DNA from: Gammaproteobacteria bacterium
Lineage (GTDB): Bacteria; Pseudomonadota; Gammaproteobacteria; UBA4575
Direction of reading: 5' to 3'
Assembly: GCA_965262455.1 (NCBI GenBank)
Contig: CBDHFH010000003.1
Location: 12,406 to 76,405 of the forward strand
Length of the DNA: 64,000 nucleotides
How positions within the stretch are numbered: the stretch's first letter is position 1; the number at the start of each line of letters is the position of its first letter. Positions 1,629 through 29,793 of the stretch are shown here, piece after piece. The notes under the pieces are model-generated. The model did not search any database, was not told where the DNA came from, and saw nothing but the letters and a program-made list of their open reading frames with translations. A program made the translations under genes and the position numbers.

Positions 1629-2336
1629 TCACGTCACTTGTTTTAGACGCTTATAAAAAGAGGCAATATACATAAACAAAAACATCGCTAATAAACACTC
1701 TTTGGTTTCTCCCGCTCTAATATCCAGTATATGCGGCACTGTCGTGTCAAATAATTTATATGCTTTCTCATGCAGGCTTACTAACACAGCTAATAAACAA
1801 GTGGGTATGTTGACGTATGTTGGCCATAACCAGGTATAAAATGAATCTGCTGATAACTGATTATTGCGTAATAAAAAATAGCACGGCACAAGTACGCCAC
1901 CCACGACAGCAGCAATCGTTAACAGCATCCGTGGCACCTGGTCCAACAGTGCGCTGGTATTATGCAAGTTTGTTTCGCCTTGATCGTTGACATCCATCCA
2001 ACCTTCGGGGGTTGCCCATCCAAACCAGTGTTGACCCCAGCTGATTTCCTCCCCCGCGTAATAAATACAGCCCACTACAAGTAACGTTAGCCATAACTTG
2101 AAAAACGGGAACTGAAACGATTTCATGTTCGTGATAGATAAAATGCCTAAAACAATCGCGATGGCTAATACTACAAATGTATAGTTCTCAATTATGCCTA
2201 ACTCACCATAGACGTATTGATCAGAATCAATGCTTATAATTCGCATCACATAGGGAAATAACGCCACCAACAAGGGTAGCCATAACCATAGCCACTTAGG
2301 CAAATCCAACAGAGGTTGATGTTGCATCATATGCAT
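1629..2336 (-). CDS. integral membrane protein, unknown function
   Basis: 235 aa with several hydrophobic segments (LWLWLPLLVALFPYV, FVVLAIAIVLGIL). Overlaps the downstream kinase-like ORF by about 10 nt, consistent with an operon. Confidence 0.5.
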   Translation of the reverse strand: MHMMQHQPLLDLPKWLWLWLPLLVALFPYVMRIISIDSDQYVYGELGIIENYTFVVLAIAIVLGILSITNMKSFQFPFFKLWLTLLVVGCIYYAGEEISWGQHWFGWATPEGWMDVNDQGETNLHNTSALLDQVPRMLLTIAAVVGGVLVPCYFLLRNNQLSADSFYTWLWPTYVNIPTCLLAVLVSLHEKAYKLFDTTVPHILDIRAGETKECLLAMFLFMYIASFYKRLKQVT

Positions 2337-2998
2337 TTACTCGCTTGTTTTGATAAATATTCCCAGTGTCTAAGACTGCGGTAGTCACGATGATTTTTAC
2401 TTCTTAAGCCTAACTTAAAGCCAATTGCCATAAAAGGATTGGGTGGACATAGATGCTGAGGCATTAAATTAAAGTCATATAATTTTGGCACCCAAACCCC
2501 CTTGGTGTCTTTGACTAAACGAATATTACCAGGGGGTATGTCCAAGTCATACAATCCCACCTTAGCCGCATGCTTAACAATATCATAACCGGCACGCAAT
2601 ACTTCCTTAGGTAATCCGCGACATTGTTGCATTAAATCTTCCAGCCAAATGCCTTCAATATATTCCTGCACAAACGCCAACACATAACCCTGTTCCGGTT
2701 TAATTAGTTGATATGGCTTAGCGACATATTGTTTCAACATATCAGTTTGATAGGCAAGCATATTCCGAGAAAATTCAAACTCTCCTATATTGACTTTATA
2801 TTGTGATTGATATTTTTCAATATACGCTTGCTTATAGACTTTAACTACAACTTGCTGCTCAAGATAATCTGCAAGAAACACTTGCGAGCGCCTTCCCTCA
2901 CCTAATGAATTTTTTATATTAATCTCTTTCGGCAGTGGTAATTGGGCCATGTTAGAATAGCTACTTAAGCGCTTGGAATGGCGCGCAAGTATATACAA
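2327..2998 (-). CDS. LPS kinase (Kdo/WaaP/RIO-like) family protein
   Basis: Gly-rich loop GEGRRSQVF, VVVKVYK lysine motif, DLDIPPGNIRL catalytic-loop-like segment and DFN motif. The true start may be the internal Met at about 2950. Confidence 0.5.
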   Translation of the reverse strand: MYILARHSKRLSSYSNMAQLPLPKEINIKNSLGEGRRSQVFLADYLEQQVVVKVYKQAYIEKYQSQYKVNIGEFEFSRNMLAYQTDMLKQYVAKPYQLIKPEQGYVLAFVQEYIEGIWLEDLMQQCRGLPKEVLRAGYDIVKHAAKVGLYDLDIPPGNIRLVKDTKGVWVPKLYDFNLMPQHLCPPNPFMAIGFKLGLRSKNHRDYRSLRHWEYLSKQASKCI

Positions 2999-3026
2999 TT
3001 ATCACCCATCTAAGTTATTTTTCTTT

Positions 3027-3968
3027 ATGTCTTATAATGTCGGAATCATAGGCGCTGCTAGAAGACATCAAGGCACTGGGCCGTATATTGCGAGAAAATT
3101 CGCCCAGCTTGGACATAACATCGTAGGTATAGTGGGTACAAGCGAACAATCCACGCAACAAGCTGCGCAACATCTGCTTGAAAATTACGCCATAAAGACA
3201 GATGCCCACAGCAGCTTTGATCAGTTATGCCAGCAACAATCACTGGATATATTAGTCATTGCTTCACCGCCAAATACTCACTTAAGCTATTTAGAACAAG
3301 CGCTTGAATATGGCTGTCATATTTTTTGCGAAAAACCACTCTGGTGGCCTAGCAATCAAATAAGCAAAGAAAATTATTTATTAAAAATACAGCACATAAT
3401 TGATCGTGCCCGAGAACAACACTGTCTGGTGCATTTAAATACTCAATGGCCTTATACTTTAAAGGATTTTAACCAGCTATACCCAACAGCTATTAGCAAT
3501 AATCAGATTCATCAATTTGCCATGTGGCTCAGCCCCCAAAGTAGTGGTTCAAACATGCTAATTGATGCTGCCTCACATGGACTGAGTATGCTTTATCAAT
3601 TAGTCGGCAGTGGAGAATTAGACGATATCCAGGTCACTTCTAATGACAACAGTACTCGAATAAATTTTAGTTATAGGCATCAAGCTGGGCTGACAAACTG
3701 CGAATTGCTTTTTATACAATCCAATGAAACTCCCAAGCCCGCCAGCTATCAAATAAACGGCTGCTCAGTTAAACGTATTGTTGCGTTACCCGAGTACCAA
3801 ATTCAGTTACAATCCGAGCAACAGATAACTACGATACATGATCCACTGGACGCATCCATTGAAGACTTTTTGGCGTCTATCGATGCCAGCATAGAAATTG
3901 ATGACATTGCATTAAGTCTCGGTGCCAGGCATCTGTATAAATTGATCGAATATTTTAACAAGAGCTAA
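3027..3968 (+). CDS. Gfo/Idh/MocA family NAD(P)-dependent oxidoreductase
   Basis: Rossmann N-terminus MSYNVGIIGAARRHQG with EKPL motif. Start trimmed to the ATG at 3027; the ORF track begins at 2973. Confidence 0.7.
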   Translation: MSYNVGIIGAARRHQGTGPYIARKFAQLGHNIVGIVGTSEQSTQQAAQHLLENYAIKTDAHSSFDQLCQQQSLDILVIASPPNTHLSYLEQALEYGCHIFCEKPLWWPSNQISKENYLLKIQHIIDRAREQHCLVHLNTQWPYTLKDFNQLYPTAISNNQIHQFAMWLSPQSSGSNMLIDAASHGLSMLYQLVGSGELDDIQVTSNDNSTRINFSYRHQAGLTNCELLFIQSNETPKPASYQINGCSVKRIVALPEYQIQLQSEQQITTIHDPLDASIEDFLASIDASIEIDDIALSLGARHLYKLIEYFNKS

Positions 3969-3970
3969 CC

Positions 3971-5365
3971 ATGGAAAAAATTCACTCAGCTGATGGCGAA
4001 GTGCTAATGGAGATTTCTCCATTAATAGACTTCCGCAAGAAAAATAACATTAAGTCTAGTTTGTCTGTTATTGAGGCTCCCTTGCATGCGAAAAACAATC
4101 AAGATGCACACAAAGATAAGCAGGTCGAGTTATCGCCTATTCATGATTTTTCTGCCAAATTGCGTCAACCCTCTATTATAAATACTTTAAAAGAATATGT
4201 GTTATGGCAAGCCAAGTGGCGCAATGCCTATTCTGCAGGGCAATCAATTGATGAAATACTGGAACAAGTACCCAATCATGCTCCGCTGTCTATCAATTTA
4301 GATGTCACTACCGCATGTAATTATCGTTGCGATCACTGCGTTGATATGGATATTTTGAACACTGGCATTCGTTATGATCATGAGCAGTTAAAAGATTCAC
4401 TGACGACACTAATCAATAGAGGTTTACGTTCCGTGATTATTATCGGTGGCGGCGAGCCCACCGTGTATCCGGGTTTTGCTGACATCGTTCGACACCTGAA
4501 AGCACACGATATACAAATAGGTGTGGTCACGAATGGCAGTCGTATGGATCGAGTTGCTGAGGTTGCAGATGTGCTTACCAAAGGCGACTGGGTGAGGTTA
4601 TCGTTAGACTCAGGCGATAACGAGACCTTCCGAGCTATGCATAAGCCTGTCAGCAAAAAAGTCACGCTAGACTGGATTTGCTCACATATACCTGACATTA
4701 AAAAAATAAATGCAGATTTTCAAATTGGTTATAGTTTTATTGTCGTATGGAAAGACTGCGAAGCTAACGACACTGAAATTATTGATAACACTGACGAAAT
4801 TGTTGAAGCGGCTGAACGTGCTAAACAATATCAATTTGATTATATCTCCTATAAACCTTTCCTAACACGCGCAGAAGAAAATAACGCTGAAGTTGTCAAC
4901 CTCACTCAGGAAGAAAATTCGATTGATAGCATATTGAAGAAGATACGCACCGCAATCGATGCAACAAAATCGCTAGCAAGTGATGACTTTGCTGTCATTG
5001 AGAGTACAAATCTTCGCGTGTTAGAAAATGGCAGTTATAAAGACTTTATTGACCAGCCTAGCACTTGTCATATGCAGTATTTCCGCCAGGTGCTCAGCCC
5101 ATTAGGTGTATTCAACTGTCCGGTTTACCGCCATGTCCCGCAAGCATTACTTGGTGGCAAACATGAATACCAAAACGAAGACAGCTTCAAAGAAACACAA
5201 AAAAATACTTTAAGACTTATAGAAGCGTTTGATGCTAATTACGAATGCCGTAATGTCACATGCTTATATAATCATGCCAATTGGTTGATTGAAGACTTAA
5301 TTCGTCATCCAGAAAAACTGGACTCGCTGACACCCTCTGAAGAACGCCACGATTACTTTCTCTAA
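3971..5365 (+). CDS. radical SAM domain protein
   Basis: CNYRCDHC (CxxxCxxC) motif near residue 115, GGGEPTVYPGF SAM-binding motif, VTNGS. C-terminal extra Cys cluster (C..NCPVY..YECRNVTC). 464 aa. Confidence 0.75.
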   Translation: MEKIHSADGEVLMEISPLIDFRKKNNIKSSLSVIEAPLHAKNNQDAHKDKQVELSPIHDFSAKLRQPSIINTLKEYVLWQAKWRNAYSAGQSIDEILEQVPNHAPLSINLDVTTACNYRCDHCVDMDILNTGIRYDHEQLKDSLTTLINRGLRSVIIIGGGEPTVYPGFADIVRHLKAHDIQIGVVTNGSRMDRVAEVADVLTKGDWVRLSLDSGDNETFRAMHKPVSKKVTLDWICSHIPDIKKINADFQIGYSFIVVWKDCEANDTEIIDNTDEIVEAAERAKQYQFDYISYKPFLTRAEENNAEVVNLTQEENSIDSILKKIRTAIDATKSLASDDFAVIESTNLRVLENGSYKDFIDQPSTCHMQYFRQVLSPLGVFNCPVYRHVPQALLGGKHEYQNEDSFKETQKNTLRLIEAFDANYECRNVTCLYNHANWLIEDLIRHPEKLDSLTPSEERHDYFL

Positions 5366-7549: not shown

Positions 7550-8528
7550 TTACACTCTATCAATCACTGCCTTAAATACTTGCTCTGGTAGTATATCTTT
7601 AAGACAACGATAGTGATTATAACGACACGTACGCTGCCAACATGGACTGCATTCCAATTTCATATAAAACGTTTTCGCCTGCGCATGTAATGGCGGCGTA
7701 TACACTGGCGTAGTCGCTCCATACATGGCAACCACAGGCACATCCACAGCAGCAGCAATATGCATCAGTCCCGAATCATTACTCACTGCAACACTACAAC
7801 TTGCCAATATATCAATGACATCCAGCAAACTGGTCTTACCGCATAAATTCATCACCGGTTGGCGGCATAACTTCTGTATCTGATCTCCTATTGCGGCATC
7901 TTTTTGTGAGCCGAGAATACAAACTTCCAGACCTTGTTCAACCAGCTTATCTATTAACTTAACAAAGTGCTCAATTGGCCATTGTTTGGAAGGTCCGAAT
8001 TCCGCGCCAACCATACAAGCAATCAGTGGGGCCTGCTGTGGAATGTTATGGTAAGCAATTAACTTGCGTTGATTTTGACTGTCAATTATCAGTTCGGGCG
8101 CGTATGTTTTTTTTTACCTCGGTGATATCTACTTCGATACCTGCATGACGCAAATAATTACACACCGTTGGGATGCTTTTACTTTTGTTAGAACTCAGCA
8201 CATGATTAATTAATCCATGTCGGAACTCTCCCAGTTCACCCACTCGTCGGGGGATGCCAGCCAGCACTGGCACCAGCGCTGATTTATATGACCTAGGCAG
8301 CACCAGTGCTTGAGTAAATGATTCAGCACGTAATGTTACCCCCAGTCGATAACGTTTACTCAAGCCAAACTCCCCATGAGCAACTTCTAACGCATGCACT
8401 TTAGTGATCTCAGGCATACGTTCGAGTAAAGCGCGAGACCATGCAGGCGCTACCACATGTATTTGGGCTGAGTTAGAATGAGCGGCAAGCGCTTTATATA
8501 GTGCTTGCGCCATAACCATATCACCCAC
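7550..8528 (-). pseudogene. waaF: ADP-heptose:LPS heptosyltransferase II (WaaF/RfaF), split by a -1/+2 frameshift inside an A9 tract
   Basis: The N-terminal ORF (8082..8528) ends ITEVKKNIRARTDN*. The C-terminal ORF frame, read back across the tract, gives KKTYAPELIIDSQNQRKLIAYHNIPQQAPLIACMVGAEFGPSKQWP, matching the conserved WaaF segment before the GAEFGPxKxWP motif. Confidence 0.7.
8107..8115 (-). repeat. homopolymeric tract (T9 on plus, A9 in the coding strand) at the waaF frameshift point
   Basis: Read directly: cgtatg-ttttttttt-acctc. A8 or A11 would restore one full-length WaaF ORF. Confidence 0.9.
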
Positions 8529-8588
8529 CCATGCTGGACCGATTACTAAACTTTTATTATTAATATATCACTCCAGATAAAAATTATT

Positions 8589-9479
8589 GTGTTTATACCT
8601 AGCCATCTTCAGCAATCAGCTAAACCCTATGCATTAGGCAAGTACGTGATTCACCCTGCGCATACAAACAACGCCAAACTGGAACAGTGGATTAATGATA
8701 TCCAGTTTGAATATTGTGAAACTCCAGCAAATCGCATGCAATTACATAGCCGCAAAAGAAATAATTTATATTCATTTCATCTTGATGCAATAGATAAACC
8801 TGTGGTACTCAAAGTCTCGCAAATTTCCGCACATTATCGCTGGTACCGAAAGTTAAATTTAATGCTGGTTGGTTTATTTAAAAATTATAGCTTAAATGCC
8901 TATTATGGTGGCATCGCATTAGAAAAAATAAATATAGATAGTATAAAAGTGATTGCACATTGGACATGTAAACACCTGGCTGAAAGTGAAAAATCTTATT
9001 TGCTGTATGAAAAGGTACCGGCTTCTATGTCAGTGTTCGATTTATGCCATGAATTAACTGAGAAAAATCCTAATGCTAAAGAGATCATTCGTCGTATTGC
9101 ATTATCACTTGCGAATATCATTAAAACATTACACCAACATAATATCCGCCATGGTGACCCTCATGCAGGTAATTTTCTGCTCCGCTCATCTGTTACTGAG
9201 CTAGGTCAACTCACACCCGAGGCAGTGACTGATATGAAGTTTACATTAATCGATTTAGATAAAGTGCACTACGCTGACAAAGAAAAGCCCTGGCGCAAGA
9301 AAATTTATGATATTCGCTGCATACGACGATTTTATGTGCATGACTTAAATAGCCAGCAATGCTTACACTACTATTTAGGCAGAAAACCTAAATTAAGCGA
9401 AAAGTTGATTTTATGGTTTTGGCTTAAAGGCGGGTTTAATATCTACAAATGGCTTAAGAGCAGTAAAAAAAGAAATTAA
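8589..9479 (+). CDS. lipopolysaccharide kinase (Kdo kinase/InaA/WaaP family)
   Basis: HGDPHAGNFLL and IDLDKV motifs typical of the Kdo/WaaP kinase family. 296 aa. Divergent from waaF. Confidence 0.6.
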   Translation: MFIPSHLQQSAKPYALGKYVIHPAHTNNAKLEQWINDIQFEYCETPANRMQLHSRKRNNLYSFHLDAIDKPVVLKVSQISAHYRWYRKLNLMLVGLFKNYSLNAYYGGIALEKINIDSIKVIAHWTCKHLAESEKSYLLYEKVPASMSVFDLCHELTEKNPNAKEIIRRIALSLANIIKTLHQHNIRHGDPHAGNFLLRSSVTELGQLTPEAVTDMKFTLIDLDKVHYADKEKPWRKKIYDIRCIRRFYVHDLNSQQCLHYYLGRKPKLSEKLILWFWLKGGFNIYKWLKSSKKRN

Positions 9480-9506: not shown

Positions 9507-9722
9507 TTACTTTTCAGCATAGCCGAAACTATTCAGCCATGATTTATCTGTCTTTCTTCTACCGCTGGATTTTCTTCGTGCAGAGTCGGGATTTTTAGCT
9601 CGCACAGACTCTAGGGTGCACATATTATCCTTCAGGAAATAGGTGCATATAGGCTCGCTTATTTTTTTAGCTTGCTCATAATCCTCAGCAAGCAAGTTGA
9701 ATGTGACTATAAATTCTTTCAT
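9507..9722 (-). CDS. small hypothetical protein (71 aa), doubtful
   Basis: ORF only, with a basic C-terminus (RRKSSGRRKTDK). Lies between the hldE terminator and the convergent kinase gene. May be spurious. Confidence 0.25.
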   Translation of the reverse strand: MKEFIVTFNLLAEDYEQAKKISEPICTYFLKDNMCTLESVRAKNPDSARRKSSGRRKTDKSWLNSFGYAEK

Positions 9723-9828: not shown

Positions 9829-9858
9829 CTAAAAACGTGGCTCACTTGTGAGCCATGC
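9829..9858 (-). terminator. rho-independent terminator downstream of hldE
   Basis: Hairpin cgtggctcac-ttg-gtgagccatg (9-10 bp stem). On the minus strand it is followed by TTTTTAG. Confidence 0.55.
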
Positions 9859-9879: not shown

Positions 9880-11280
9880 TTAATGTTTATCTACAATCGA
9901 TGAAATAATATTACTGGTTGAGTAGCCCTCAACAAACCGAATAATCTTAACCTCTCCACCACGCTGCATGACATATTCCGCGCCGACCACTTGATCCGGC
10001 GTATAATCACCACCTTTCACTAACACATCGGGATTCAACTCGCGAATTAACTTTTCTGGCGTGTTTTCATCAAAACTGACTATCCAGTCGACACTAGAAA
10101 AATAAGATAACATCTCTGCGCGATCATGTAGTGTATTTATTGGTCGTCCTTCACCTTTAAGTTGCTGAACAGATTGATCTGAGTTCAATGCCAAAACCAA
10201 CATGTCACCCATGGACGCGGCCTCACGTAGTAAATGTGCATGCCCTTTATGCAGCACATCAAAACAGCCATTTGTAAACACCACCGTATGTTGCTTTGCA
10301 TGAGCATCCAAGATGCGTTTAGTTAAAAAGTCACGACTCACCAATTTGCTATTCGGCGATTCATAGCTGAGCATACCGTGTGCAAGTTCTTCGGCTGATA
10401 AGGTTGCCGCACCAAATTTACCCACGACAATACTTGCAGCCACATTGGCAACATAAGCCGCCTGTTTAAAATCGCCATCAGAGGCAAGACTCATGGCAAA
10501 TGCAGAAATAACTGTGTCGCCTGCACCTGTGACATCATAGACTTCACGCATTTGTGCTGGGAAATTTGTCACCGCACCATCTTGCATGATCAATGTCATG
10601 CCTTTTTCGCTGCGCGTGATTAACAATGCTTCAAAATTATATTGTTGACATAAATGTTGTGCTTTTTGATAAATGTCTTGTTCCGACTCACACTCTCCAA
10701 CCACTGCACAAAACTCAGAATAATTTGGCGTCACTACTGATGCATTTTTATATTTGGCAAAATCAGTGCCTTTTGGATCAACAATAACTCTTTTATTATG
10801 TTTAAGTGCATTTTGAATAACTGCTTGCGCATCATCAAGCACACCTTTGCCGTAATCAGATAATATAACAATCGCACAATTTTCAACGACAGCAGAAAAT
10901 CTTTGCTGAATATCCGGCAAACTAACGTGGGCTTGATCATCAAAATCCAAGCGGATAAGTTGTTGGTTGCGACTAACTATCCTGATTTTCGAGGTTGTAC
11001 GAATATCAGGATGAGAACATAACTTGCATTCAATATTTTCTTTATCCAATAATTTTTGTAAGGCGACACCCTCTTGGTCTTCACCAATCGCACCGAGCAA
11101 CGTTACTTTAGATCCCAGTGCACTTATATTCTGCGCAACATTTGCCGCACCACCGGCTCTATCATGTGTCTCATTAATTCTTGCCACGGGCACGGGTGCC
11201 TCAGGCGAAATTCGATCAGCATCCGCATGCCAATATCGATCCAACATGACATCACCAACAACTAGTACATGAACATCCAT
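9880..11280 (-). CDS. hldE: bifunctional D-beta-D-heptose 7-phosphate kinase / heptose 1-phosphate adenylyltransferase
   Basis: N-terminal ribokinase-like domain (VLVVGDVMLDRYW, GAANVA). C-terminal cytidylyltransferase domain (TNGCFDVLHKGH). 466 aa. Confidence 0.9.
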   Translation of the reverse strand: MDVHVLVVGDVMLDRYWHADADRISPEAPVPVARINETHDRAGGAANVAQNISALGSKVTLLGAIGEDQEGVALQKLLDKENIECKLCSHPDIRTTSKIRIVSRNQQLIRLDFDDQAHVSLPDIQQRFSAVVENCAIVILSDYGKGVLDDAQAVIQNALKHNKRVIVDPKGTDFAKYKNASVVTPNYSEFCAVVGECESEQDIYQKAQHLCQQYNFEALLITRSEKGMTLIMQDGAVTNFPAQMREVYDVTGAGDTVISAFAMSLASDGDFKQAAYVANVAASIVVGKFGAATLSAEELAHGMLSYESPNSKLVSRDFLTKRILDAHAKQHTVVFTNGCFDVLHKGHAHLLREAASMGDMLVLALNSDQSVQQLKGEGRPINTLHDRAEMLSYFSSVDWIVSFDENTPEKLIRELNPDVLVKGGDYTPDQVVGAEYVMQRGGEVKIIRFVEGYSTSNIISSIVDKH

Positions 11281-21459: not shown

Positions 21460-22677
21460 TTAAACCGTCTTACGATGTCCAAACGGCTTCCATGCTGGCG
21501 CAATCACATTAGGCATTTCTGAACGATTAATTAAATTAGCAGGCGCAAGAGTAAATTCACCGTAACGTTGATTAATCTTGTCCATAGCTAAATTGATCTG
21601 ATCGCGTTGAGTATCATGAGTTTCAAACAGGCACAGTTGGCGACCTGCAAAGCTAGGATCTAATGCCGTAATCTGCACTTGTGAACAACCTTGCTTGCGC
21701 CATTCATTACGCAAAAATGCATTCGCCAGTTTTTTTATATGCTGACTATCATTAGTCGGTATGTAGTTTTGTGTTTTTTGCGTTATCCAGCCTTGATTTG
21801 TTTTCACACCAATAAAATATGTTTGTGCTTCCAATTGATGTTTGCGCAGCCTGGCAGCAACTTTTTCTGCCATATGATGAAGATACATTTTTATTGTTGT
21901 TATGCTCTTGGTATTAGGCGGCATCACTTTGCCATGCCCGATAGATTTTGGCGCTGCCACACTTTGCTTTACTGGGTCAGGGTCTTGACCTTGCGCCATA
22001 TACCAAATGCGCCTGCCTAAGTTACCAAATCTATTTGCCAATTCACCAATTGGCAAGCGCTGCATATCTCCACATACATGCACGCCTCGATCATTTAGAA
22101 AATTACCAATGCCTGACGCAATACCACTCAGCTCCGTTACGGGTAATGCACTTAGATACTCACGTGCCTGTTTGGGAGGGACTACAAACAATCCATTCGG
22201 TTTTCTTTTTTTTGCGGCATGCTTAGCTGTGGTTTTATCTCCACTCACACCTACACTACACGTTACTCCACTCGCTTCATGGACTAACTGTTTGGCCATC
22301 TCTCCTGCTTCTACAGGGCTGGCATAAATTTTTTGACAACGCGTCACATCCAGGAATGCTTCATCCACGGAAAACACCTCAACATCAGGCGTTACTGTTT
22401 GCAGCACAGACATAATCTCTGTAGATACTTGCGCATAACGATAGGGCCTCGCTGGCACTTGAATTACATCAGGGCAAAGTTGTCGTGCTTGTTTAATATG
22501 CATGCCTGTTTGAATGCCGTACTTTCTTGCTTCGTAAGAACAAGTAATAAAGCATGTGCCAATTTCGCCATTAGTAATACCAATCGGTTTGCCGCGTAAT
22601 TCAGGACGATCAAATTGCTCAATACTGGCAAAGAAAGCATCCATATCAATAAATACTATGGCCCGCTCCCAATGCAT
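21460..22677 (-). CDS. umuC: Y-family translesion DNA polymerase (UmuC-like)
   Basis: IVFIDMDAFFASIEQ and SVDEAFLDVT catalytic motifs. UmuC-like blocks (ITNGEIGTCFITCSYEARKYGI, VGVSGDKTTAKHAAKK). The start overlaps the lexA stop. Confidence 0.75.
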   Translation of the reverse strand: MHWERAIVFIDMDAFFASIEQFDRPELRGKPIGITNGEIGTCFITCSYEARKYGIQTGMHIKQARQLCPDVIQVPARPYRYAQVSTEIMSVLQTVTPDVEVFSVDEAFLDVTRCQKIYASPVEAGEMAKQLVHEASGVTCSVGVSGDKTTAKHAAKKRKPNGLFVVPPKQAREYLSALPVTELSGIASGIGNFLNDRGVHVCGDMQRLPIGELANRFGNLGRRIWYMAQGQDPDPVKQSVAAPKSIGHGKVMPPNTKSITTIKMYLHHMAEKVAARLRKHQLEAQTYFIGVKTNQGWITQKTQNYIPTNDSQHIKKLANAFLRNEWRKQGCSQVQITALDPSFAGRQLCLFETHDTQRDQINLAMDKINQRYGEFTLAPANLINRSEMPNVIAPAWKPFGHRKTV

Positions 22678-22678
22678 T

Positions 22679-23281
22679 TCAATCGTACACTCTCACTTGC
22701 CCCACCAATACACCTTGAATAGTGACGCGTTTAGCTGCGTATTCTTTTGCTTGCATATTTTTATTGGCAGGAATTAACCGCACCGTATTTTTATTCGGGT
22801 ACTGAATACGTTTAAGCGTAACGTCCTGGGCATCAATTAATGCCACTACAATTTGATTACTGCGCGCGCTGCTGGCATGTTCAATAATCACCATGTCACC
22901 ATGACGAATGCCCTCATCCACCATCGACTGCCCTTTTACTTCCAGCACATAACGGTTAGGTCCATTTAATAAATGAGTAAAATTTATTGTTTGTTTATCT
23001 TCAATCGCCTCAATAGGCTTGCCTGCGGCAATACAACCCAACAAGGGCAAATCGTCAATATCTGGGTGATCGGCTAACTCAATACCACGCGTTTTAGGAT
23101 TGCGAATAATATAGCCTTTGTCTTCCAGCGCTGATACATAGCGGTGTACCACCCCTTTAGACTGAATCCCCAAGCCCGTAGCAATTTCAGTCAATAGCGG
23201 CGCTTTGCGCTGTTTAACATAGTAATTAACAATAAAATCGAAGGTGTCTTGTTCGCGTTTGGTTAGCATATAAGTTCTCAT
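22679..23281 (-). CDS. lexA: LexA repressor (wHTH + S24 peptidase domains)
   Basis: N-terminal winged-HTH (LTKREQDTFDFIVNYY...GYIIRNPKTRGIEL). Ala-Gly cleavage site (CIAAGKP). Ser (GQSMVDEGI) and Lys (TLKRI) of the catalytic dyad. The true start is likely the second Met (MLTKREQ). Confidence 0.8.
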   Translation of the reverse strand: MRTYMLTKREQDTFDFIVNYYVKQRKAPLLTEIATGLGIQSKGVVHRYVSALEDKGYIIRNPKTRGIELADHPDIDDLPLLGCIAAGKPIEAIEDKQTINFTHLLNGPNRYVLEVKGQSMVDEGIRHGDMVIIEHASSARSNQIVVALIDAQDVTLKRIQYPNKNTVRLIPANKNMQAKEYAAKRVTIQGVLVGQVRVYD

Positions 23282-28237: not shown

Positions 28238-28870
28238 ATGTCACTGACACCAGAAGAATTAGAAGCCATCATGGAACGTAAAAATAAGATGCGACGCGAG
28301 GCATATGACCGTCGCAACGCACAAGAAAACAAGGATGAGGTTAGCGCTAAAGCCGTTAAACGCTTTATGGAGCTGCCTGACTATCAGAATGCTCACTGTG
28401 TTATGTGGTACATCGACTGCCGATCAGAAACGCGCACCAAGCCTGAGTTACTCGCAGAAGTCGCCAAGGGCGAAAAGAAAATTATCGTGCCTTACTGCAC
28501 TGAAGATGAAAACGGTGAAAACAAACTTGGTCTATGGTGGATGGAAAGCCTAGAAGAGATGGTGGTTGGTAAATGGGATATCCTTGAGCCGCCTAAAGAA
28601 ATGTGGGGCAATCCAGAAAAAGAAGTTGAAGCTGAAGACCTCGATCTTGTTATGGTTCCTGGCGTTGGCTTTGACCGTAATGGGGGACGCATGGGTAATG
28701 GCCAAGGTTACTATGACCGCTTGCTGGAAAAAGTTCGCCCAGAATCACCTTTGATTGCGCTCTGCTACGAGTCGCAGTTATTCGACAATGTGTTAGTGGC
28801 ACCACATGATGTTTACATGGATAAAGTTGTTACTGAAGATGCTGTTTACGAAGGTAAAGGAAGAGACTAA
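28238..28870 (+). CDS. 5-formyltetrahydrofolate cyclo-ligase (MTHFS) family protein
   Basis: 210 aa. MTHFS-family signature (MVPGVGFDRNGGRMGNGQGYYDRLL). Stop overlaps the fhcD start (TAATG). Confidence 0.7.
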   Translation: MSLTPEELEAIMERKNKMRREAYDRRNAQENKDEVSAKAVKRFMELPDYQNAHCVMWYIDCRSETRTKPELLAEVAKGEKKIIVPYCTEDENGENKLGLWWMESLEEMVVGKWDILEPPKEMWGNPEKEVEAEDLDLVMVPGVGFDRNGGRMGNGQGYYDRLLEKVRPESPLIALCYESQLFDNVLVAPHDVYMDKVVTEDAVYEGKGRD

Positions 28871-29793
28871 TGACTGCCATTATTGATGACACTTATGCAG
28901 AAGCGTTTAGAAGCTTCTACACAGAGTTTCTAATTACTGCAAAAGACTTGAAGTGGGTGGAGCACGCCGTGAATGCGGCCACAGGCAATGCATCAAGTTC
29001 CATTCTATGTGATTGTGAAGCCGGGCTAGATCGATATGTGGGTCCTGGTGCTGATGAGAGTTTTGAAACACCTGATGGTCGTCCTGGCGCATTGGTGCAG
29101 TTGCACGTGCCACGTTTTCGCAAAGATCGCGTAGAAGCATTAGAGCGCTCTGCGTTAGTGAGGATCAGTCAGAATGTGATGACATGCCCAACTGCATCAT
29201 GTTTCAACATGATTGACTCTGAGAACTACTATCATATGGGCCGCAAAGTCGCTTACTTCGGTAATGGTTACCAAAAACGTATTGAACGTTATGGGCGCAA
29301 AATGTGGTGGATCCCGATTCTTGGTGGCGAGTTTGTGCTTGATCGCCGATTGGGGCAAGCCGATGGTCTAATGGGGGGCAATCTTTGGTTCTTTGGTAAA
29401 GATGTTGACTCTGCACTGGAAGCCGCCGAAAAAGGCTGCGAAGCTATTTCTCCTATCGATGGCGTGATCACTACATTCCCGGGCGGTATTGCTGGCAGCG
29501 GTTCTAAAGCTGGTAGTAATTACGATTTCACTATTGCAAGTACCTATGAAAAGTTTTGTCCACTACTGCAAGATGATCCCACCGTTGAACATGGTCTCCC
29601 TGAAGGCGTTAACTCAGTGATGGAAATTATCATGAATGGACGCGATATGGCTTGCATTGTTGAAGCAACTCAAGCGGCGATCCAAGCATCTAAAGAAACA
29701 GATGGACTCATTATGATATCAGCAGGTAACTATAATGGACGTCTAGGTAAGAGCTTTATTTACCTGGATCCGAGCAAACAGCCCAATGACTAA
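28870..29793 (+). CDS. fhcD: formylmethanofuran:tetrahydromethanopterin N-formyltransferase (Ftr/FhcD)
   Basis: 307 aa. Ftr-like throughout (DDTYAEAFRSFYTEFLITA, GNASSSILCDCEAGLDRYV). No fhcA/B/C adjacent. Confidence 0.85.
   Translation: MTAIIDDTYAEAFRSFYTEFLITAKDLKWVEHAVNAATGNASSSILCDCEAGLDRYVGPGADESFETPDGRPGALVQLHVPRFRKDRVEALERSALVRISQNVMTCPTASCFNMIDSENYYHMGRKVAYFGNGYQKRIERYGRKMWWIPILGGEFVLDRRLGQADGLMGGNLWFFGKDVDSALEAAEKGCEAISPIDGVITTFPGGIAGSGSKAGSNYDFTIASTYEKFCPLLQDDPTVEHGLPEGVNSVMEIIMNGRDMACIVEATQAAIQASKETDGLIMISAGNYNGRLGKSFIYLDPSKQPND

Follow-up and report, generated by a model that had tools for sequence, protein, structure and literature searches.

The interrupted waaF gene of an uncultured gammaproteobacterium: one extra base at a poly-A tract and a candidate AUU start

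Introduction

WaaF is a glycosyltransferase of family GT9 with the GT-B fold; it adds the second heptose from ADP-heptose to the Hep-Kdo2-lipid A inner core of lipopolysaccharide (LPS). In a stretch of 64,000 nucleotides from an uncultured gammaproteobacterium (assembly GCA_965262455.1, contig CBDHFH010000003.1; the whole stretch is called the window here), the waaF gene comes in two pieces that lie in different reading frames and meet at a run of nine adenines. LPS glycosyltransferases are classically phase-varied in Neisseria, Haemophilus, Campylobacter and Helicobacter. Is the run a switch of the LPS core, is the gene dead or rescued during expression, or is the ninth A simply not there?

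The answer that we favour is a prosaic one. For annotation, a single waaF on the minus strand is appropriate, which extends over 7550..8564, starts at ATT and carries a frameshift of one base at a homopolymer. Two genes, an old pseudogene and an LPS switch should be avoided as labels. As to the origin of the extra base, we rate the chance as about even that the ninth A is technical, i.e., that a native A8 was miscalled as A9 in the consensus or assembly at the longest homopolymer. The native tract would then read GTA AAA AAA ACA TAC (VKKTY), and the organism would make full-length WaaF and have no switch. In either case we take the gene for a normal, recently functional waaF, with the heptose donor ADP-heptose supplied by the product of the neighbouring hldE. 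The relevant features are compiled in Table 1.

Table 1. The waaF locus, its start regions in the closest positional orthologs, and further features of the window
Feature	Position	Strand	Evidence or remark
Whole waaF (LPS heptosyltransferase II) with one extra base inside	7550..8564	-	Repaired product 337 aa
Open reading frames callable as two pieces	8082..8528 and 7550..8014	-	List of open reading frames
N-terminal (acceptor-binding) domain coding segment, frame 0, to tract	8116..8561	-	45/45 ortholog-invariant residues kept
C-terminal (ADP-heptose-binding) domain coding segment, +1 frame, undecayed	7550..8104	-	75/75 invariant residues; stop TAA 7552..7550
Coding-strand A9 (T9 on + strand), longest homopolymer of the 64-kb window	8107..8115	-	
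9-nt interval holding the extra base, AAAAAAACA	8105..8113	-	C-frame TAA 8116..8114 and conserved TAC (Tyr) 8104..8102
Premature TGA met in the A9 frame	8082..8084	-	
Inferred start ATT (AUU) of waaF	8562..8564	-	Conserved in orthologs, with Shine-Dalgarno
Shine-Dalgarno GGAG, 6 nt upstream of ATT	8571..8574	-	
In-frame TGA bounding the possible start region	8568..8570	-	
Start region, ortholog L001			GGAGtcgcgtATT
Start region, ortholog L002			GGAGtgagctATT
Start region, ortholog L003			GGAGtgagttATT
Start region, ortholog L004			GGAGtagagaATC-ATT
Start region, ortholog L008			GGGGtgaaatATC
LPS kinase-like gene (Kdo/WaaP family), divergent, intact	8589..9479	+	PF06293 34.3 bits; found at the same place in relatives
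71-aa frame between hldE and kinase gene	9507..9722	-	76-89% identity in 5/5 closest relatives
hldE (ADP-heptose synthesis), intact	9880..11280	-	NF008454 620.6 bits (cutoff 521); synteny
Second GT9 heptosyltransferase-like gene, 349 aa	36..1085	+	HepI/HepII/HepIII models 86/62/76 bits, below cutoffs
Same-strand overlapping frames of 235 and 223 aa, 10-nt overlap	1629..2336, 2327..2998	-	No Pfam/NCBIfam match
Gene with weak N-terminal inositol 2-dehydrogenase similarity, then 464-aa radical-SAM protein	within 2973..5365	+	
LexA-like S24 peptidase (200 aa) directly upstream of Y-family DNA polymerase (405 aa)	21460..23281	-	umuDC-like SOS arrangement
5-formyl-THF cyclo-ligase gene, then formylmethanofuran-H4MPT formyltransferase (FTR) gene	28238..29793	+	

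One gene in two frames

At the junction the coding strand reads ATC ACC GAG GTA AAA AAA AAC ATA CGC. Translated as written, it yields 152 native residues followed by NIRARTDN and then meets the TGA at 8084..8082, so that no uninterrupted frame spans both domains. This product of 160 residues lacks the ADP-heptose-binding domain; being the acceptor-binding domain alone, it would for that reason be inactive. The frame is regained by removing one base from the run or by adding two: with A8 a single open reading frame (ORF) of 337 residues results, with A11 one of 338, and A9 and A10 lead to stops. Read back through the tract, the downstream frame encodes KKTYAPELIIDSQNQRKLIAYHNIPQQAPLIACMVGAEFGPSKQWP.

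Judged by its sequence, the protein obtained after repair belongs to the LPS heptosyltransferases II of family GT9, is full-length and is predicted to transfer heptose II. It matches TIGR02195 with 381.7 bits (cutoff 134.6), its residues 5-333 covering model positions 2-334 of 339. The models for heptosyltransferases I and III (HepI and HepIII) give at most 67 bits, and PF01075 (GT9) gives 185.5. The nearest solved structure is that of E. coli WaaF (1PSW; 234 bits over residues 4-331). The score against the narrower enterobacterial RfaF model NF008162 (284.8 bits) stays below the cutoff of 569, which points to a distant ortholog of E. coli WaaF, from an uncultured Thiotrichales-like clade. An AlphaFold2 model of the repaired protein (predicted local distance difference test, pLDDT, 78.9; predicted template modelling score, pTM, 0.79) has strands and helices alternating in both halves, a pattern that the expected two-domain GT-B fold would fit.

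Position of the extra base

Stop codons confine the frame switch to 8113..8085, between the TAA of the C-terminal frame (8116..8114) and the TGA that ends the N-terminal one. The conserved Y-x-P-x-L motif, in which P156 and L158 are invariant, narrows it further to the nine nucleotides AAAAAAACA (8113..8105), and these overlap the longest homopolymer of the window. Since all orthologs aligned have VK-x-x-Y/F at this site, removal of one base restores the native length, and A11 adds one lysine.

Two ancestral sequences may be considered. The favoured one is VKKTY with A8, as spelt out above, followed by a slip to A9. The other, GTA AAA AAA AAC TAC (VKKNY), has an in-frame A9 and would have gained an A after the C; it fits equally well, and one ortholog (L003) has a comparable GTG AAA AAA AAT TAC (VKKNY) at the site. 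Mutation-rate reasoning points strongly to the homopolymer as the site of the extra base. Because of this reasoning, and because no intact waaF in 79 related loci has a run longer than eight, the change from A8 to A9 is preferred.

The original prediction for this locus, which was made from the letters of the DNA, can be judged at this point. It had taken the two minus-strand ORFs for halves of WaaF, had seen a conserved segment in the downstream frame when read through the tract, and had expected one intact protein of roughly 330 residues from A8 or A11. All this is borne out: the ORFs exist, the repaired protein matches TIGR02195, and only the lengths are slightly greater. The N-terminal ORF lies where it was placed (8082..8528), yet its proposed start at GTG 8528 has to be given up, as the conserved segment KSLVIGPAW is encoded upstream of it. 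That the frames meet exactly inside the T9 is the likeliest placement and falls short of proof, since the extra A may equally well follow the C.

Age of the lesion and quality of the assembly

A gene that lost its frame long ago should carry several lesions or show relaxed constraint downstream of the first. Here the columns that are invariant among the 22 closest homologues are kept on both sides of the shift (45/45 upstream, 75/75 downstream), as are nearly all the near-invariant ones (65/67 and 99/100, respectively). Identity in the C-half, divided by that in the N-half, comes to 1.018, compared with 1.033 ± 0.065 among ortholog pairs. As the downstream half is without decay, these comparisons suggest that the lesion arose very recently, is not real, or is bypassed when the gene is expressed.

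We therefore consider it hardly credible that the locus is an old, decaying pseudogene or a natural enzyme of two polypeptides, one for the N- and one for the C-domain. Of course, two separate ORFs can be called, and the break is close to the linker that joins the two GT-B domains. A pseudogene, however, is at odds with the lack of a second lesion, with the retention of all 120 invariant residues and with the equal conservation of the two halves; also the missing ATG is a trait of the clade, not damage (see below). The split enzyme was rejected because the first ATG of the downstream piece encodes the family-invariant M184, which lies within the first strand of the C-domain (E180-184). A product starting at M184 would miss part of the Rossmann core, and no motif resembling a Shine-Dalgarno sequence was seen by eye upstream of that ATG.

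Residual errors of long-read or low-coverage consensus sequences concentrate at the longest homopolymers. A miscall is the likelier reading because decay is absent, because waaF is the only identifiable broken gene of about 52 in the window, and because the break occurs at the longest homopolymer. The heptose machinery around waaF is intact, with hldE, the LPS kinase-like gene and a second GT9 gene, and an organism without heptose II would have little use for an intact hldE, kinase and GT9 paralogue. The exact-protein index of public assemblies does not contain the source genome, and several of the nearest relatives are single-chromosome metagenome-assembled genomes (MAGs). Both facts are compatible with a recent long-read assembly; this point is weak and circumstantial.

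Some observations speak against a technical origin. Fourteen other coding runs in the window (A/T of at least 7, G/C of at least 6; three of them of length 8) are in frame, and in each of five adjacent ORF pairs on the same strand the members are complete, different genes, not splits. Since the rest of the window is clean, the assembly is not homopolymer-error-prone in general, and a generally error-prone assembly was rejected as an explanation; a clean window is still compatible with one remaining error of length at the longest run of all. The ancestral VKKTY is awkward as well: the second variable position is D, N, E, Q or L in the 22 closest homologues and never T, and the residue statistics mildly favour N, i.e., VKKNY. 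Finally, a slippage mutation that is genuine and very young would leave the sequence with precisely the features expected of a miscall.

This last alternative deserves to be spelt out. A genuine, very recent +1 replication slip, by which A8 became A9 in the clone that was sequenced or in a variant dominating the population, would be reversible and probably leaky; we regard it as possible rather than probable. It shares the undecayed, single-lesion signature with the artefact, and the absence of any other homopolymer frameshift in the window agrees with it. A core truncated after heptose I would result, which could be selected, for example, by an LPS-binding phage. Any ON/OFF heterogeneity would be accidental, not evolved. 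The intact hldE, kinase and GT9 neighbours, however, speak against a long-standing loss, and deep-rough mutants pay a cost in permeability, so that such a variant should be transient.

The tract in related genomes

For comparison, 80 related loci were fetched, closeness being judged among the matches listed. On this basis, the closest relatives are MAGs of uncultured Gammaproteobacteria/Thiotrichales, with 68-78% identity; in the scan of a genome collection, the best of the matches listed had 77% identity. The order ilvE, hldE, 71-aa ORF, divergent LPS kinase-like gene, waaF, MCP gene is common to the window and to L001, L002, L004 and L008; L003 has the same order, but the MCP gene was not found there. 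Because their gene order matches that of the window, these five are considered positional orthologs, and in all five waaF is uninterrupted. An intact waaF ORF is present in 79 of the 80 loci, and none of the 79 contains a run of nine or more. At the homologous site the run is only A3-A5 in L001, L002, L004 and L008, and an in-frame A8 in L003. No tract of the same species was found for comparison, neither by exact-protein look-up with HldE and the C-terminal ORF nor by a metagenome pattern scan that tolerated different tract lengths.

An evolved contingency locus, in which the poly-A tract is kept as a hypermutable switch of heptose II for bet-hedging against phages or grazers, is unlikely in our view. 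The frame junction does coincide with a mutable homopolymer in an LPS glycosyltransferase, and the gene is undecayed, as expected if it is regularly ON. Yet the tract is not conserved at the site, as the runs in the orthologs reveal. It is also short. The PhasomeIt cut-offs for contingency loci based on simple sequence repeats (SSR) are at least 7 for poly-G/C and at least 10 for poly-A/T (PMC6321876). The latter value derives from experimentally phase-variable loci, mutability being described as a continuum (PMC6321876). The A9 thus misses the cut-off by one base, which is a soft failure.

Nor is the composition of the window that of a tract-rich genome. A/T 9-mers occur once in the 64 kb, compared with a mean of 3.96 in dinucleotide shuffles, of which 94 out of 100 have at least one; A/T 8-mer matches number 5 where 12.4 are expected. 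No second tract of at least nine is present, and thus no excess of SSR is seen within the window. Lysine is encoded by AAA in 74% of cases, and AAAAAA is used in 18 of 41 KK dipeptides; the tract, composed of GTA, AAA, AAA and AA, would accordingly be the outcome of default lysine codon usage, which again counts against a contingency locus. The A9 itself is unremarkable; what is notable is its coincidence with the only frameshift of the window. As a side aspect, the depletion of long A/T runs suggests selection against slippery runs in this genome of 41.5% GC.

A literature search gave no case in which waaF itself is phase-variable by SSR; the five papers that met all three search terms concern, judged by title and abstract, lipooligosaccharide (LOS) or LPS of Campylobacter or Helicobacter in general. 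This, too, is unfavourable to a contingency locus. One might still imagine that a real A9 is kept by a free-living, methylotroph-like gammaproteobacterium as a reversible, leaky switch of heptose II. WaaF would then be turned ON and OFF by slippage of the DNA, for example under pressure from phages, and slippage of RNA polymerase would keep a trickle of full-length enzyme on top of a weak AUU start. We hold this to be improbable. If true, SSR-type bet-hedging at the surface, a trait of host-adapted pathogens, would also occur in an environmental lineage and would reach a gene of the inner core.

The original prediction had offered two interpretations, a phase-variable LPS core switch and a homopolymer sequencing error, and had proposed to compare tract lengths in related genomes. 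That comparison goes against the switch, which in addition finds no positive support from tract length, codon usage or A/T enrichment. The sequencing error remains fully viable and is the likelier of the two; proof is another matter, as a genuine recent slip gives the same sequence features. The pair of interpretations was also incomplete: it missed a real frameshift partly bypassed by slippage of RNA polymerase, the non-AUG start and the alternative position of the extra base.

Possible slippage during expression

If the ninth A is real, WaaF need not be lost entirely. On nine A or T in a row, slippage of bacterial RNA polymerase is efficient in vivo and produces mRNAs with extra bases (PMC5009743). 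The A9 reaches this run length, and it lies at the junction of an otherwise intact gene. In a recently slipped waaF, mRNAs with A8 or A11 would give full-length WaaF, and DNA slippage would readily revert the defect. Split genes are indeed rescued in this way, at roughly 15-30%: tssM1 of C. rodentium, with A11, is restored in about 20% of the products, and Shigella mxiE in 20-30% (PMC4256274). Also, genes of Blochmannia and Buchnera with single poly(A) frameshifts are undecayed and are treated as functional (PMC3017870). The extra lysine of an A11 product is plausibly tolerated, as judged from the AlphaFold2 model: the tract corresponds to the place where helix 147-153 ends, ahead of the interdomain linker, and in the alignment the additional residue coincides with one that E. 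coli WaaF has. A drawback is that the AUU start is weak already, so that expression by slippage alone would be very low.

In a more elaborate version, the frameshift would be genuine and stable, and WaaF would be made only by slippage of RNA polymerase or by sliding ribosomes, with the effect of throttling the enzyme. A9 is the length of documented productive transcriptional slippage, and the conserved weak AUU start suggests that the lineage keeps WaaF low. The frameshift is, however, absent from every relative examined, 79 of the 80 loci having an intact ORF, whereas a maintained one should persist undecayed across strains or species. A stimulator of the recoding type is not evident either. 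In the predicted RNA fold of 8040..8175 (z = -2.15), the one hairpin close to the run is weak, has a stem of 6 bp and ends 8 nt ahead of the run; this hairpin was rejected as a programmed-recoding element, since it is not placed like the known stimulators of slippage or frameshifting. We judge such maintained recoding to be very improbable. With no evident stimulator and no conservation of the frameshift, rescue by slippage, if it occurs, would be adventitious, not programmed. In the same fold, a long-range stem (about 8166..8146 with about 8067..8047, minus strand) encloses the A-run; 3 of 200 shuffles fold equally well.

Should the extra base be real, the locus would be a small natural case of an inner-core LPS gene that is knocked out and probably rescued in part at the A9, and would be of some interest for the dynamics between environmental bacteria and their phages.

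A probable, conserved non-AUG start

Independently of the frameshift, the beginning of the gene is unusual. Between the in-frame TGA (8570..8568) and the codons for KSLVIGPAW, which form the conserved beta-1 strand, there is no ATG, GTG or TTG. From the sequence, the ATT at 8564..8562 is the only plausible start, and the gene would thus extend over 7550..8564. The codons for KSLVIGPA vary among the orthologs mostly at synonymous third positions, which indicates that they are translated. In the alignment, M1-K2-I3-L4 of E. coli WaaF falls on K4-S5-L6 of the window protein.

An ATT or ATC start with a Shine-Dalgarno sequence is found in 5/5 closest positional orthologs, at position 3972 in L001 and at about 3995-4001 in the other four. 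The spacing of the GGAG or GGGG is the same in L001, L002, L003 and L008; in L004, GGAG stands 6 nt before an ATC and 9 nt before an ATT. An upstream in-frame stop is only one or two codons off in five of the six sequences of the clade and six codons off in L001. Four more distant loci (L015, L016, L061 and L062) do not have a canonical start either, the candidates being ATA or ATT (ATA in L015). Because the near-cognate codon and the Shine-Dalgarno sequence are kept in the orthologs, the lack of ATG is to be seen as a conserved trait of the clade and not as a second lesion; damage to the start codon, as it would be expected in a decaying pseudogene, was rejected on the same grounds.

A clade of uncultured gammaproteobacteria thus appears to start waaF at AUU or AUC, which would imply a naturally low rate of translation initiation. 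Confirmed AUU starts of E. coli are limited to infC and pcnB, and the initiation rate of near-cognate codons is about 0.02-3% of that of AUG (bioRxiv 10.1101/063800). Many homologues are called at 320-331 residues; most likely, gene callers truncate the proteins at the non-AUG start, and the first beta-strand is lost. If so, the public calls of waaF in this clade are systematically too short. The conserved start is the most reusable by-product of the present analysis and a candidate for the very short list of bacterial non-AUG starts.

Neighbouring genes and other features of the window

The starts of waaF and of the divergent kinase-like gene are 24 nt apart, a spacing that is 23-27 nt in L001-L004 and L008. 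With so little room, the promoter and the 5' untranslated region of each gene must lie inside the other. A consensus scan of 8564..8589 detected no promoter resembling those of sigma-70. A hairpin resembling a terminator is found just downstream of hldE (9855..9838).

The second GT9 gene looks like a divergent paralogue. The two overlapping frames of 235 and 223 aa may be either two orphan genes or one split gene. The match to inositol 2-dehydrogenase within 2973..5365 (46 bits, far below the cutoff) suggests an NAD-dependent oxidoreductase, and the best NCBIfam match of the radical-SAM protein is the prokaryotic viperin family, which at 66.6 bits is below the threshold of 180. Lying between LPS-core genes, the two may form a sugar- or nucleotide-modifying pair.

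That the organism is methylotroph-like, as had been supposed from the start, is supported by the genes for 5-formyl-THF cyclo-ligase and FTR. The gene of the Y-family polymerase contains an in-frame T8 run of the plus strand (22206..22213).

Comparison with known systems

The closest characterized counterpart is E. coli WaaF/RfaF (1PSW; TIGR02195; CAZy GT9). After repair of one base, the window protein is homologous to it over the full length, and its gene is likewise found among LPS-core neighbours, here hldE and the LPS kinase-like gene. The differences are the frame, which is broken by one base in the window, and the start, which is AUU instead of AUG.

In its start the gene resembles infC and pcnB of E. 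coli: a near-cognate AUU or AUC behind a well-spaced Shine-Dalgarno sequence is kept in the orthologs and would imply low initiation subject to discrimination by the initiation factor IF3. In contrast to these two, waaF encodes an LPS glycosyltransferase, for which an autoregulatory logic is not known, and the case for it is a comparative one.

With the slippage-rescued genes, i.e., those of Buchnera and Blochmannia, tssM1 with its A11, mxiE and spa13 of Shigella, and dnaX of T. thermophilus, the locus shares at least nine A or T at the junction of an undecayed gene, and its product, too, comes into frame with one base less or two more in the mRNA. In those genes, however, the frameshift is conserved or experimentally verified, whereas in the window it is unique and known from this sequence alone.

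Lastly, the locus has in common with lgtA, lgtC and lgtG of Neisseria (poly-G/C) and with wlaN and cgtA of Campylobacter (poly-G) that a homopolymer lies within the ORF of a surface-glycan glycosyltransferase, where a change by one base in either direction toggles the frame; lic2A and lgtC of Haemophilus are phase-variable LOS/LPS glycosyltransferases with tetranucleotide repeats. The tracts of these SSR-controlled enzymes usually consist of G/C or of tetranucleotides, exceed the validated cut-offs, are conserved yet variable in length among strains, and belong to genomes rich in such tracts; the enzymes act on decorations of the outer core. The tract in the window, in contrast, is an A9 below the threshold, is not conserved, stands among depleted A/T runs, and interrupts an inner-core gene whose loss is costly.

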